Notes under the pieces: model-generated
Database searches by the model: none
The model's input: only the letters and a program-made list of their open reading frames with translations
What the model was told of the DNA's origin: nothing
NCBI RefSeq assembly: GCF_058153355.1
Contig: NZ_CM177019.1
Reading direction: 5' to 3' (one strand)
Length of the DNA: 64,000 nt
Shown here: positions 51,341-55,574 of the stretch, piece after piece
How the letters are laid out: every line of letters begins with the position of its first letter
How positions within the stretch are numbered: the first letter of the stretch is position 1
Program-made: the position numbers and the translations under genes

Positions 51341-51683
51341 CTGGCAATTTATGCTCCACTTTCCAGGCTTGCCTGTAATCGGGGATAATAGAAATATGTT
51401 CCATCAATTTTTTAAGTTCCATTTTGTCCCCCTTAATTATGCAATGAGTATTTGATCATGTATAAGCAATGAAAAACAGCTTTAGGTAATAAGGAACACC
51501 TCAATTATTGAACATAAAATGCGAATTATTTAGTACAAAAAAAGCAGCATTAAGTGAGTAGGCCACCGGAACCTCCCCGACAGCCTCTCGCAGAACCGTA
51601 CGTGAAACTCTCGCTTCATACGGCTCCCGTCAGGCAAACGCGCTTCCTGGTCCTGCTTTCCAGTGGGCAAACAACTCCGGCTT

Positions 51684-52955
51684 CTATTTTGACAGCCTTT
51701 CCATTAGCTGACACGCCTTCGTCTTTCTATACCGCAGGGTTTTATATTTCTTTCTCGCCCACGCAATCAGCGTCAGATTAATATATCTGCATACTTTCTT
51801 CATCGCTGATTTGTGGTATCTCGCGTAATAATTCAGCCACCCCGATATTATCGGATTCAGCCACTTCGCAATATCTTCGAGACTCATCTCCACCCTGCGT
51901 CTGATCCACTGTTTCCTGAGTTTTCCAATCATGCCTTTCTGCGCACGGTTACTCGCCGCCGGGCTGAAACTCGTAAAGAGGTTTCCCCGCCGGTGGTTAC
52001 GTGCTCTTCGCGCTCTGAACGTATACCCCAGAAAATCAAACTGCACTGTTTCATGGTTCGCCTGTCGTTCGCTGTCTTTGCAGTAAACTATTTTCGTTTT
52101 CTCCGGATGTAATTCCAGTCCACATTCCTGAAAACGTTTTGCCAGCTTATTCAGTAATTCCTCTGCCTGTTGTTTACTGCCACAATGAATTAATCCATCA
52201 TCTGCATAACGGCACCAGGGAATTTCCGGATAATGTAACGTCAGCCATTTATCAAACACATAGTGCAGAAATAAATTCGCCAGTACCGGGCTGATGACTC
52301 CACCCTGTGGCGTACCTTTATTTCTTTCCTTCAGTGTTCCATCCGGCATCTGCACCGGCGCTGTCAGCCACCGGCGAATAGACAGTCTTACCCATTTATC
52401 CGCACAATGTTTATCTACTGCCCTGAGTAATAAATCGTGGGAGATATTATCGAATAACCCTTTAATATCAAACTCAAGACACCAGTCGTATTGCCAGCAA
52501 CGTTTTCTGGTGACTGCTATTGCATCCAGCGCTGATTTTCCATGCCGGTATCCGTATGAATCATTCAGGAAATAACGCTCCACTAATGGTTCAAACGTTA
52601 CCAGCACCGTCATCTGCGCTATTCGATCGCTTACTGTCGGTATTCCTAAAAGTCTTTTGCTGCCATCCTTCTTCGGAATTTCCACCGCACGCACTGGCGG
52701 CGGCATCCAGCTTCCCGACGATAACCTGTTCCAGATTTTGTACAGATTTCCTTTCAGATCCCGCTCAAAATCTTTCAGCGTCTGGTTATCCACTCCGGCA
52801 GCTCCGGCATTCGCCTTTATCCGCCGGTACGCTTCCACCACATGCAATTTACTGACCTGAAACGGTTTTGTCTGTTCACACACAGCCTCCTCCTGCCTAC
52901 AGTTGGGCTGTGATGCAGACTGCCCGACGCTGTCCCTTCGCTCCACGTTCATTAC
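51684..52955 (-). CDS. Group II intron-encoded reverse transcriptase/maturase
   Basis: RT motifs (LLGIPTVSDRIAQ, YADDGLI) and maturase X region; start set at MNVERRD because the upstream in-frame extension runs into the IS21 terminus. Confidence 0.85.
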   Translation of the reverse strand, partial: VMNVERRDSVGQSASQPNCRQEEAVCEQTKPFQVSKLHVVEAYRRIKANAGAAGVDNQTLKDFERDLKGNLYKIWNRLSSGSWMPPPVRAVEIPKKDGSKRLLGIPTVSDRIAQMTVLVTFEPLVERYFLNDSYGYRHGKSALDAIAVTRKRCWQYDWCLEFDIKGLFDNISHDLLLRAVDKHCADKWVRLSIRRWLTAPVQMPDGTLKERNKGTPQGGVISPVLANLFLHYVFDKWLTLHYPEIPWCRYADDGLIHCGSKQQAEELLNKLAKRFQECGLELHPEKTKIVYCKDSERQANHETVQFDFLGYTFRARRARNHRRGNLFTSFSPAASNRAQKGMIGKLRKQWIRRRVEMSLEDIAKWLNPIISGWLNYYARYHKSAMKKVCRYINLTLIAWARKKYKTLRYRKTKACQLMERLSK

Positions 52956-53153
52956 AAACGCTTCCTCACTACTACGAACAGCTCTGCCCCGGTTTCGCAC
53001 ATCGATACTCTCATACTCATAATTTCGGTTATTTGTATTTCTCTCTTGACATTGCGACGACCGGTTCCCGTAGTTCCTGCAAAGAGCCTGATATGTCAAC
53101 GCCACGATTTTTAACCGTTATTTGCCATTTTCATGCCCGCTAAGATACTTTCG

Positions 53154-53954
53154 TTACTGATGCTGTCCGCTTTTCACCATTTCATCATCACTGATTGGCG
53201 TTGTGTTTTTGGTCAGCACTCCAGCTTTACGTTTCTCTTTTAACCGGTAACTCTCTCCTTTGATATTCAGCGTGGTTGAGTGATGTAGCAGCCGATCCAG
53301 TATCGCTGTTGCCAGCACGTGATCTCCGAACATTTCTCCCCAGTCTGCGAACCCTTTGTTTGACGTCAGTATGATGCTCGCTTTTTCATATCGACGGTTC
53401 AGTAGCCGGAAGAACAGGCTGGCTTCCTCTCTGTTCATCGGCAGATAGCCTATTTCATCCAGGATCAACACCCGGGCATAACTCAGTTGCTGTAGCTGAC
53501 GCTCCAGCCGGTTTTCCTGTTTCGCTTTCATCAGTGTCGCGATCAGTCTGTCCAGTGGCATAAACAGTACCCGATGTCCCGCATCCACCGCTTTCACGCC
53601 AAGAGCTATGGCCAGATGCGTTTTTCCTACACCCGGAGGTCCCAGCAGGATCACGTTTTCGCTGCGCTCCACGAACGCCAGACCTGCCAGTTCCCGGACA
53701 ACCTTACGGTCGATGCCCGGCTGGAAGGTAAAGTCGAACTGCTCCAGCGTTTTGACCCACGGCAGACGAGCCTGCTTCAGCCTGGACTCCATACCGCGCT
53801 GATGCCTGCCGTTCCATTCCTGCTGTAGCGCCATGCTCAGGAACTCCCGGTAGTTCAGCTCTTTTTTAGCTGCCTGTTCCAGCAGGCTTTCAACGTGATA
53901 ACTCAGATGCTCCATTTTCAGGCGACTCAGCAGGACTTCCAGCTCATGCATCAC
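53154..53954 (-). CDS. istB: IS21-family helper ATPase IstB
   Basis: 266-aa ORF with Walker [12 protein letters not shown], DnaC-like. Confidence 0.9.
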
Positions 53955-55123
53955 AACAGCTCCTCATAGGCACTCAGTGGTCGATGTTCCACCTGACTGA
54001 CCTGCTGCCAGAGCGGGGCGTGATGCTCCGGCACTGTCTGCCAGCCAGACGATGCCGAACAGAGGCGATGTGAGGCCACCAGTTTCTCATTACTGTAGAT
54101 CCGCAACTCGTCATCCAGCGATATTCGTATCGATACCGGCTGACCACACAGCGCTTCGGGAACGCTGTAACGATTACCACCAACCTCGATATAGCTGTCC
54201 CAGGACACATGGCGGATGTCGAAGTAACTGGTATCGAAGTCCGTATCCGGTAACGGCTGCAGATGTTCCTGCTCCAGCGCGAAGCGCTGTTCCGGCGTTT
54301 CTTTGAACTGGCGAAGTTCCCGTTTGTCAGCCACATCGGCTATCCATTGCTCCAGTTGTTGATTAACATGAGTGAAGCTGTCGAACCTGCGGTACCGGAC
54401 GAAGAAGTTCTCCTTGAGGTATTTCACCATCCGCTCAACCTTACCTTTTGTTCTGGCCCTGCGTGGACGGCATGCCCGTGGCAGGAAGTTATAGTGGTCG
54501 GCCAGCAACAGGAATCCGGAGTTGAACACGGCTTTCCCGTTGTTATTCTTCAGCACCGCAGCCTTCTGGTTATCAACCAGCACCGTTTTCACACAACCAC
54601 CGAAGTAGCGGAAGGCGCGAACCAGTGATTCGTAGGTATGCTCAGCATCCTGTTTTGGTGCGGCGAAGACATGGAAGCGGCGGGAGAACCCCAGCGTATT
54701 AACCGCAAAGTTAACTTTGCACCGTTGCCCGGCAACCTCCACCTCAACTTCGCCCCAGTCGTGCTGGAGCTGGTATCCAGGCTGAGTTTCGAAGCGAACT
54801 GTTCTTTTTGACGGACGCATTTTACGTTTGGGCTGGATGTAGTAACGCAGCATGGAACGTCCGCCCGTATAGCCCATTGCCTTAATCTCCGCGAAGATAA
54901 CCTCGCTATTCCAGACATTCTCTGCCAGGCGCATGTCGATGTAATCCATAAACGGTTTCAGCTTAACCATTTTGTGGCGGGTCTTTCTGGCTGGCGGTTC
55001 AGGGTATTTGAGGTAGCGTCTGACCGTTCGTTCAGAGCAACCAATCTGAGCCGCAATATCGACAATGTACGCGCCCTGCTGGCGCATTTGCTTTATCATG
55101 TAAAAGTCCTCTCTGCTCAGCAT
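53951..55123 (-). CDS. istA: IS21-family transposase IstA
   Basis: 390-aa ORF with N-terminal HTH and DDE core, overlapping istB by 4 bp. Confidence 0.9.
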
Positions 55124-55574
55124 GTTGATGTCCTTTCTGGTGTGGGAACCTTAAGGAAACAACATGTTGGGTGGAGCGGACAATCCAAATGGCGAATTAC
55201 CGTCTTATATCACTGGCGCTGACAGATACAGCGTCATGCCTGCTATACACCGGACACCATTCACGCAGCATTCGGAATTCACCCGTAAATTAATCCCGGC
55301 GGTATCACGAAACCTCCGGTTTTGATGTCACTTAGGACTAACGACGTTTCAACACAGGTTCGGGTTTACTCATCTCACTGTATCTCACATAGGATCAGAT
55401 CTCGTCTGATCGTTCCCCCTGCGCTCACTACCATGGCTCTTTACCACAGCAGCCGGGGTTGTTTGGGACCGACTTCCGACAGCAGATCCCGGTGGGCCTG
55501 CCACCATCTCTTCACAAGCTTATGCTTATTACATGCAAAACGTCCCGTTTTGCATCTTTGTGCCTACGGCACAC

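Follow-up and report, generated by a model that had tools for sequence, protein, structure and literature searches.

IS21 within the group II intron E.c.I9 within a decayed H-repeat: a highly probable three-level nest of known mobile elements in Escherichia coli

The locus

The material analysed was one sequence, a stretch of 64 kb that is called the window here. Next to yafV, where an hcp-vgrG gene island (type VI secretion) ends, the minus strand of the window carries a group II intron that begins at 55574 (GUGUG) and ends at 51553 (…CACU). Within this interval lies an insertion sequence, and on both sides of it lie parts of an H-repeat (H-rpt) element, probably of the ISAs1 family (Table 1). 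We regard it as highly probable that the locus is a three-level nest of known mobile elements, in which IS21 sits in the intron E.c.I9 and E.c.I9 sits in a decayed H-repeat. An earlier note on this DNA had described a group II intron broken by an IS21-family element. The Rfam and IS21 matches agree on this point, and the element is IS21 itself.

Table 1. Features of the nested elements, in the 5' to 3' order of the intron. Coordinates are those of the window; nt, intron numbering after removal of IS21.
Feature	Coordinates	Strand	Evidence
5' exon, first 15 nt of the H-rpt left end (probable ISAs1 family); IBS1 AUCACG at 55580-55575	55575..55589	-	similarity start
5' intron part, E.c.I9 nt 1-350	55225..55574	-	RF01999, 93.1 bits; 100% identity to intact copy
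Target-site duplication, copy 1, TATC (plus strand GATA), nt 347-350	55225..55228	-	intact copies have a single TATC
IS21, 2,131 bp	53094..55224	- (same orientation as intron)	99.2% identity over 100% length
Target-site duplication, copy 2, TATC	53090..53093	-	flank comparison
nt 351-372: invariant AGG, then 3' strands of the two closing helices of domain I (354-364, 367-372)	53068..53089	-	covariation
Domain II, nt 376-451	52989..53064	-	stem 93% paired, 7/10 pairs changed on both sides
Domain III hairpin, nt 479-495	52945..52961	-	100% paired, 4/5 pairs changed on both sides
Domain IV, nt 511-1812, holds the gene of the intron-encoded protein	51628..52929	-	basal helix 94% paired, 6/8 pairs changed on both sides
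Reading frame of the intron-encoded protein, probable start GUG to premature TAG	51684..52883	-	RVT_1, GIIM, TIGR04416
Domain V, nt 1814-1847, 34 nt, AGC triad and GAGA loop	51593..51626	-	RF00029, 62.8 bits
Domain VI, nt 1851-1884, bulged A	51553..51589	-	Rfam and structure; 3' boundary from empty site
3' exon, rest of the H-rpt element	50602..51552	-	local blastn against BL21 locus; three-frame translation

Boundaries and identity of the intron

Two Rfam models recognize the intron on either side of IS21. The group-II-D1D4-2 model (RF01999) matches 55505-55388 far above its gathering score of 36 (93.1 bits, E 1e-17), and the domain V-VI model (RF00029) matches 51628-51553 with 62.8 bits (gathering score 40, E 5e-10). 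Both ends of the intron were fixed by comparison of the filled H-rpt site with an empty one (L003), which reads CCAGGGAAAAATCACG and then TAATGCTGC across the exon junction, and they agree with the published coordinates of E.c.I9. Of the interval 51550-55574 proposed earlier, the 5' end was exact, and the empty-site comparison moves the 3' end to 51553.

When IS21 and one TATC are removed in silico, the flanks join, as had been predicted, into a contiguous and gap-free intron of 1,887 nt. Its first 520 nt, the joint included, are 100% identical to the intact E. coli copy in NZ_CP033762, and over the full length the two differ by 4 substitutions without a gap. A copy in FDAARGOS_536 is 99.8% identical to the repaired intron. 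Against the E.c.I9 reference in ATCC 8739 (NC_010468 2411599-2413485; Leclercq and Cordaux, 2012, PMC3522654), the alignment is gap-free from end to end with 96.3% identity, and length and 5' and 3' ends are the same. By the database rule for names, introns with more than 95% nucleotide identity are given the same name (quoted in PMC3552965), and 96.3% places the repaired copy within E.c.I9. E.c.I9 is a class D intron that targets the Rhs IS (PMC3522654), and the homing site is shared with the copy described here, namely the left end of H-rpt, or 'Rhs IS', in Rhs or vgrG islands. The present copy differs from the reference by IS21 after nt 350 and by a nonsense codon at nt 1754 in the gene of the intron-encoded protein (IEP), found in no other copy.

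Place of the insertion in the ribozyme

The domains were mapped by covariation in six class D introns, a small set in which the alignments were built from segments chosen by the analyst. The closing helices of domain I, domain II, the domain III hairpin, the base of domain IV, and domain V are 90-98% paired in this set, against 30-58% in slid controls. Upstream of IS21, nt 1-350 begin with GUGUG and make up most of domain I, the interior of which is only partly modelled by RF01999. EBS1 belongs to this part, as do nt 6-11 and 57-67, the 5' strands of two helices. In the helix 57-67/354-364, which is 94% paired, 7 of the 11 pairs are changed on both sides, and the same holds for 3 of the 5 pairs of the helix 6-10/368-372, which is 100% paired. 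Domain II shows compensatory changes between E.c.I9 and E.c.I2. The loop of the domain III hairpin reads UGUAAUG in five of the six introns (CUAACG in that of Priestia), and in the present copy it contains the first in-frame ATG (52952-52950). The basal helix of domain IV is formed by CGUCGGGC and GCCUGACG (nt 511-518 with 1805-1812). Domain V, which the earlier note had rightly called intact, is identical to the reference copies and is 100% paired in the six introns with 5 covarying pairs. In domain VI, A1881 (51559) is unpaired and stands 7 nt from the 3' end, and the structure suggests that it is the branch point.

By this map, IS21 lies in domain I after nt 350, only 3 nt upstream of the 3' strands of both closing helices. 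In a transcript, these 3' strands would sit 2.1 kb from their 5' partners, and most of domain I, EBS1 included, would be cut off from domains II-VI. The earlier description, which put domains I-III on one side of IS21 and the IEP with domains V-VI on the other, does not agree with this map. Downstream of IS21 come the 3' strands that close domain I and then domains II and III, and what lies upstream is an incomplete domain I only.

The older anatomy, with complete domains I-III upstream, the IEP and domains V-VI downstream, and IS21 in domain IV or at the III/IV junction, retains very little probability. Its attraction is a possible pairing of UCAGGC (nt 349-354) with GCCUGA (nt 1805-1810), immediately ahead of domain V, which resembles a basal helix of domain IV; by the same manual reading a similar pairing can be drawn in E.c.I2, and just 138 nt separate IS21 from the first in-frame ATG. 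This pairing was dropped, however, in view of the position of EBS1, a domain I element, at nt 266-271 and of the covarying true helices. The two closing helices of domain I pair across the six introns with many double changes, and the covarying domain II, the domain III hairpin and the real base of domain IV (511-518/1805-1812) are all situated downstream of IS21. Furthermore, the reading frame of RmInt1 starts at nt 547. Two other folds were set aside: the single-sequence minimum free energy fold of the intron without its ORF was non-canonical, and for three E. coli introns RNAalifold mixed spurious long-range pairs with the domains II, V and VI that it did recover.

The intron-encoded protein

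The IEP contains the domains RVT_1 (1e-41) and GIIM (6e-13), and scores 428 bits against TIGR04416 (cut-off 300). An HNH or endonuclease domain gave no match in the IEP, which ends just after GIIM. The annotated start, the ATG at 52952 (nt 488), falls in the loop of domain III. A GUG 69 nt further on, at nt 557, is the likely start; it is preceded by AGGAGG and stands about 207 nt from IS21; in relatives, the start is found at nt 547 (RmInt1) and nt 564 (E.c.I2). The earlier statement that IS21 lies about 140 nt upstream of the reverse-transcriptase start is true of the first in-frame ATG, but that ATG belongs to the domain III loop and the distance does not hold for the likely start.

The reading frame is closed by a TAG at 51686-51684 (nt 1754-1756), ahead of the ancestral stop UGA at 51632-51630. 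In intact copies the same codon is GAG and the protein runs on for 18 aa, EKPELFAHWKAGPGSAFA; the premature TAG was found at none of the 51 places where E. coli copies were compared. This nonsense mutation had escaped the earlier note. The C-terminal extension of class D (…KPELFAHWKAGPGSAFA) is still encoded in the DNA, behind the TAG, and is not translated. Comparison among the E. coli introns shows it in E.c.I2 as well (LFAHW). Judged by its position, the TAG removes the class D C-terminal signature, which has been reported to be needed for maturase activity and mobility (PMC3552965).

Predicted loss of splicing and mobility

With domain I in two pieces and a shortened IEP, both self-splicing and retromobility are predicted to be lost, and the intron is very probably inactive in both respects. 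The earlier note had called it probably splicing- and mobility-defective, and this view is supported. We infer the loss, like the order of events given below, from the sequence, whereas the nonsense codon, the domain map, the target duplication, the boundaries and the identities are shown directly.

It is very unlikely that the interrupted intron still folds and splices. In that case the 2.1-kb IS21 would form a very large loop in a variable, single-stranded joiner of domain I, much as domain IV accommodates the ORF, and another E.c.I9 copy would provide a maturase in trans. Group II introns are able to reassemble from fragments, and large insertions are tolerated by group II introns at some positions. 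Because of this tolerance, and because nt 345-350 vary among the class D relatives, some residual folding may be possible; every conserved ribozyme element is also present and unmutated compared with intact copies. Since only 64 kb are visible, the genome may hold, outside the window, an intact E.c.I9 copy able to provide the protein in trans. On the other hand, the insertion puts 2.1 kb between the two strands of each closing helix of domain I and adjoins the invariant AGGCU motif, the IEP of this copy is truncated, and a second intron copy was not found in the window. The host insertion sequence is dead, and therefore selection for splicing is not expected. If the intron did splice, it would be a natural example of a group II ribozyme that tolerates a very large insertion inside domain I.

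The IS21 element and its target duplication

The matches to the inserted element at 99.2% identity include copies annotated as IS21 in S17-1 and MFDpir, and about 17 substitutions separate it from the closest database copies. It carries istA (DDE transposase; 55123-53951, 390 aa) and istB (AAA+ helper; 53951-53154, 265 aa) in tandem, overlapping by ATGA. Both are full length and exceed the NCBIfam cut-offs, istA with 284 bits for NF033546 (cut-off 160) and istB with 303 bits for NF038214 (cut-off 200). The element starts with TGTCAGCGCCA... and finishes with ...TGGCGTTGACA, and its terminal inverted repeats, TGTCAGCGCCA and TGTCAACGCCA, have TGT/ACA ends and are alike in 10 of the first 11 bases. 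IS21 makes target duplications of 4 bp. The 4-bp GATA duplication noticed earlier was verified against uninterrupted copies of the intron, in which the sequence is single. In its 2,131 bp, the order of istA and istB, the TGT...ACA ends and the 4-bp duplication, the element is like the prototype IS21 of plasmid R68.45 and RP4 derivatives. This copy looks intact and may still be mobile.

Least likely of all is that two intron remnants were joined by an IS21-mediated rearrangement, by IS21-IS21 recombination or by misassembly instead of a simple insertion: thousands of E. coli genomes do hold truncated 5' remnants of E.c.I9 (159 or 193 bp), BL21 at this same locus among them, and the exact IS21/intron junction was found neither in 5,426 complete E. 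coli genomes nor in the GTDB representative genomes, but the upstream piece here ends at nt 350 and not at 159 or 193, the flanks bear an exact 4-bp direct repeat and join without gain or loss of a base into a sequence that, over the joint, matches an intact copy at 100%, and the window holds a single IS21 copy.

Homing site and the H-repeat host

EBS1 (CGUGAU, 55309-55304, nt 266-271) is found in a hairpin loop and is a perfect 6-bp complement of IBS1 AUCACG at positions -6 to -1 of the 5' exon. The two elements covary in E.c.I2, where CGUCCAG is combined with CUGGACG. In the ATCC 8739 lineage of E.c.I9, EBS1 reads GAUGAU. An EBS2 pairing of UCCU with AGGG is proposed tentatively. As a side observation, the EBS1 loop of a copy from S. 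meliloti (L008) was not matched to its 5' exon, which has no bearing on the E. coli element. Likeness between independent loci begins 15-16 nt upstream of the intron, and E.c.I9 lies 15 nt into the left end of H-rpt in this copy and equally at the RhsC and RhsE loci and next to vgrG in other genomes.

The left end and the ORF of the host element match elements annotated as ISAs1 family transposase with 89-99% identity, and the ends given for it are taken from the start of similarity, not from inverted repeats. The transposase gene of H-rpt, with its ATG at 51421, is a pseudogene: it has a frameshift and a stop codon, and 312 bp are deleted internally at 51035/51034. The earlier suggestion that whatever exon holds the intron is inactivated has to be given up: this exon is no gene of the host, and the intron is placed in the non-coding left end of the H-repeat, itself a pseudogene. 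A 111-aa ORF that runs into the H-rpt end (55564-55899) gave no Pfam or NCBIfam match.

Proposed order of events

With simple insertion as the preferred reading, the nest was probably built as follows. An H-repeat, probably of the ISAs1 family, would already have been present at the locus. The class D intron E.c.I9 would then have retrohomed, as it usually does, to a position 15 nt within the non-coding left end, guided by the pairing of EBS1 (CGUGAU) with IBS1 (AUCACG). Later, IS21 would have inserted itself between nt 350 and 351 of the intron DNA, with duplication of TATC. As a separate lesion, the change of GAG to TAG shortens the intron protein by 18 aa with loss of the C-terminal signature, and the H-repeat host has decayed as well; these two changes may precede or follow the arrival of IS21.

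All three elements are already known, and the locus is a case of ordinary mobile-DNA decay with little importance beyond annotation. It is an example of how group II introns decay in enterobacterial "safe" sites, here through a dead host insertion sequence, a second insertion sequence and a point mutation, and it fits the extinction dynamics previously described for such introns (PMC3522654). A by-product is a covariation-backed domain map of E.c.I9, in which the annotated IEP start falls in a ribozyme loop and the likely start is the GUG downstream. The case also calls for caution, as distance from an ORF is a poor guide to which ribozyme domain is struck by an insertion.

Comparison with other class D introns

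The class D model intron RmInt1 of Sinorhizobium meliloti likewise lives in an insertion sequence, homing into ISRm2011-2, and has a similar length of 1,884 nt. Its IEP is 55.7% identical in amino acids over 95% of the length, and both proteins are without an endonuclease domain. Further features in common are the covarying helices of domains I-V, the domain III loop UGUAAUG, and a stop codon that falls within the basal helix of domain IV. Host and target differ, and the activity of RmInt1 has been shown experimentally, whereas that of the copy described here is predicted to be lost.

E.c.I2, another class D intron, has about 75% nucleotide identity, has its domains laid out in the same way and is hosted by the same IS family. 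The sequence used was from strain PK8275, and the published host of E.c.I2 is UMN026 (NC_011751). It differs in its length of 1,891 nt, in its EBS1 (CGUCCAG) and in its homing site, which is within an ORF, the H-rpt transposase frame (IBS1 CUGGACG).

Among complete E. coli genomes, other copies of E.c.I9 are broken by IS2, by IS1414 (IS256-like) or by IS1A, in each case a different insertion sequence at a different point of the intron.

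Confirmation of the nested elements and the IS21 insertion

The earlier note had read this stretch as nested mobile elements with a disabled intron, and this observation is confirmed; all components are known elements acting in known ways. In its details, the nesting and the probable loss of intron function stand, the domains said to be separated, the start codon and the identity of the exon had to be revised, and a second lesion, in the intron-encoded protein (IEP), had been missed.

The window holds one IS21 and one intron. Between the Rfam matches for domain I and domain V-VI lie two ORFs that overlap, one of 390 aa and one of 265 aa, and both exceed NCBIfam cut-offs (IS21 transposase, 284 bits; IstB helper ATPase, 303 bits). 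Over its full length the element is 99.2% identical to copies annotated as IS21, including the RP4-derived copies in S17-1 and MFDpir. When IS21 and one TATC were excised, an intron of 1,887 nt was restored, which aligns without gaps and with four differences over the full length of the 1,887-nt copy in E. coli FDAARGOS_536; nt 1-520, joint included, are 100% identical. Rejoining of the flanks as a contiguous intron indicates that the TATC repeat is a true target-site duplication and that IS21 arrived by simple insertion. The exact IS21/intron junction was absent from 5,426 complete E. coli genomes and from GTDB representative genomes. IS2, IS1414 or IS1A is present in other E.c.I9 copies of complete E. 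coli genomes, and thus IS hits on E.c.I9 are recurrent.

Features of the island, the intron and IS21. The first eight rows follow the minus-strand reading, from high to low coordinates; nt numbers refer to the intron without IS21 and one TATC; for helices, cells paired and pairs changed on both sides in six class D introns are given.
Feature	Position	Strand	Remarks
1. hcp	62935-63453	minus	
2. vgrG	60682-62718	minus	
3. Five ORFs	55590-60660	minus	433, 341, 216, 339 and 200 aa; no NCBIfam match; downstream of vgrG
4. Small ORF			between the five family-less ORFs and the H-repeat
5. H-repeat with E.c.I9 with IS21			
6. 1.3-kb segment	within 49129-50601		167-aa ORF and 170-aa PFL_4695-family (integrating-conjugative-element) ORF
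7. Second H-repeat fragment	49129-49329		82% identity; adjoins the 1.3-kb segment and yafV
8. yafV		plus	
IS21	53094-55224	minus	2,131 bp; begins TGTCAGCGCCAGTG at 55224, finishes CGTGGCGTTGACA at 53094 (direct DNA reading)
TATC target-site duplication	55228-55225 and 53093-53090	minus	one copy each side of IS21
Domain I model RF01999	55505-55388	minus	Rfam 93.1 bits, E 1e-17
Domain V-VI model RF00029	51628-51553	minus	Rfam 62.8 bits, E 5e-10
Domain I closing helix	nt 6-10 / 368-372		100%; 3/5
Domain I second helix	nt 57-67 / 354-364		94%; 7/11
Domain II stem	nt 376-451		93%; 7/10
Domain III hairpin	nt 479-483 / 491-495		100%; 4/5
Domain IV base	nt 511-518 / 1805-1812		94%; 6/8
Domain V	nt 1814-1847		100%; 5/14

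Position of IS21 in the ribozyme

The main correction concerns the place of IS21, which was thought to part domains I-III from the IEP and domains V-VI. EBS1 (CGUGAU, nt 266-271), located in a hairpin loop, is fully complementary to AUCACG, the six bases at the end of the exon, so domain I reaches past nt 279; in E.c.I2, a second E. coli class D intron, the equivalent loop is CGUCCAG and the exon ends in CUGGACG. The helices were located by covariation among E.c.I9, E.c.I2, RmInt1 of S. meliloti and plasmid introns of Ralstonia, Acinetobacter and Priestia; as a control, the 3' partner was slid by 1-3 columns, and just 29-58% of cells were then paired. On this map IS21 falls between nt 350 and 351, within domain I and 3 nt ahead of the point where the 57-67 helix has its 3' strand. 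Upstream there is thus only an unclosed domain I, and downstream of IS21 lie the strands that close domain I, together with all of domains II to VI.

A comparison of window 55304-55309 with loci L001, L002, L004 and L012 gave two variants of the E.c.I9 EBS1, CGUGAU and GAUGAU, and H-repeat left ends terminate in ATCACG, ATCATC or ATCACT. The window EBS1 matches its own exon perfectly. Several resident copies do not match theirs, as in the ATCC 8739 type with GAUGAU behind ATCACG, a hint that H-repeats may exchange sequence or that recognition of IBS1 is relaxed.

Start and truncation of the intron protein

A reverse transcriptase ORF of 422-473 aa follows the IS21 ORF pair and precedes domain V-VI. 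The distance from IS21 to its start had been taken to the first in-frame ATG (nt 488, window 52952-52950), which is also the NCBI-annotated start of the 440-aa E.c.I9 IEP (RefSeq ltrA at L002, L004 and L012). This ATG belongs to the domain III loop UGUAAUG, which is common to five of the six introns (CUAACG in Priestia). In relatives, annotated IEP starts lie 33-47 nt past the 5' strand of domain IV (nt 547 in RmInt1, nt 564 in E.c.I2). E.c.I9 has a GUG at the corresponding place, nt 557 (window 52883), 69 nt downstream of the ATG and preceded by AGGAGG (Shine-Dalgarno). We infer that GUG 557 is the likely true start, with a predicted protein of ~417 aa.

Intact E.c.I9 IEPs end in ...MERLSKEKPELFAHWKAGPGSAFA, and their stop codon lies within the basal helix of domain IV. 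In the window, nt 1754-1756 (51686-51684) read TAG, against GAG in intact copies, and the final 18 residues are lost. With this codon at the centre of a 72-nt probe, 51 places in 39 genomes were matched, none identical and the best one base off. The C-terminal extension is described as a class D signature that has a part in both maturase function and mobility (Toro and co-workers, PMC3552965), so this truncation alone is likely to inactivate the window IEP.

Identity of the intron and its H-repeat host

E.c.I9 is known as a class D intron of Rhs regions that homes into the "Rhs IS" (Leclercq and Cordaux, PMC3522654). The sole full-length copy in that dataset, from ATCC 8739 (NC_010468 2411599-2413485), is 1,887 nt like the repaired window intron, and the two align over their whole length, gap-free, with 96.3% identity. 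A query built from the repaired intron and short flanking sequences was matched over 80% or more of its length in 83 complete E. coli genomes. The window IEP has RVT_1 and GIIM domains (TIGR04416, 428 bits), and no endonuclease domain was found in it by domain search; among plasmid-borne proteins from outside Escherichia, the RmInt1 proteins of S. meliloti are the nearest to it (55.7% identity).

A joined-exon query matched ISAs1-family elements (H-repeats) across the proposed junction in nearly all E. coli genomes. The empty H-repeat site reads CCAGGGAAAAATCACG followed directly by TAATGCTGC, and its window equivalent reads CCAGGGAAAGATCACG, the intron (GTGTG...CTCACT) and TAATGCTGC; this comparison places the intron ends at 55574 and 51553. 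Sequence shared among unrelated loci starts 15-16 nt upstream of the intron and no further, which puts E.c.I9 just within the H-repeat left end, with the transposase ATG (51421) ~130 nt downstream. Thus, no host gene is broken where an exon had been thought inactivated; the interrupted DNA is the H-repeat left end upstream of that ATG. Compared with the orthologous element of BL21, the window H-repeat has lost 312 bp of internal sequence and shows a frameshift as well as a stop codon, and judged by its sequence it is dead.

At the same aspV-yafV locus, E. coli BL21 keeps just the first 159 nt of E.c.I9 (L007 6001-6159), and the full-length window copy may therefore preserve the ancestral state of this remnant. 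With thousands of E. coli genomes carrying one, 5' remnants exactly 159 or 193 bp long at the left end of an H-repeat are very common (also PMC3522654).

Genomic context

Megablast of the DNA at 55590-60660 against the 5,426 complete E. coli genomes gave no match; of the query, the vgrG portion alone was matched. The five ORFs may be T6SS effector and immunity cargo unrepresented in this set. A 111-aa minus-strand ORF with two CxxC pairs (55564-55899) crosses the H-repeat left end and reaches its TAG within 11 nt of the intron start. No Pfam or NCBIfam model matched this ORF, which may be a gene cut off by the H-repeat insertion, or spurious. The 1.3-kb segment is missing from the BL21 locus. 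In NZ_AP027764 the annotation beside an empty H-repeat is similar, with a hypothetical protein and then an integrating-conjugative-element protein.

For the core genes yafJ, lpcA, fadE, ivy and yafV (window 43000-48900), which adjoin the island, the best identity to any of the 5,426 genomes is 98.2%; the source of the window is an Escherichia lineage without a close representative in that set. Rfam naRNA4 repeats (REP/BIME-type), typical of E. coli-like chromosomes, lie at 9376-9453, 9581-9658, 33792-33868 and 44287-44364 (76-88 bits).
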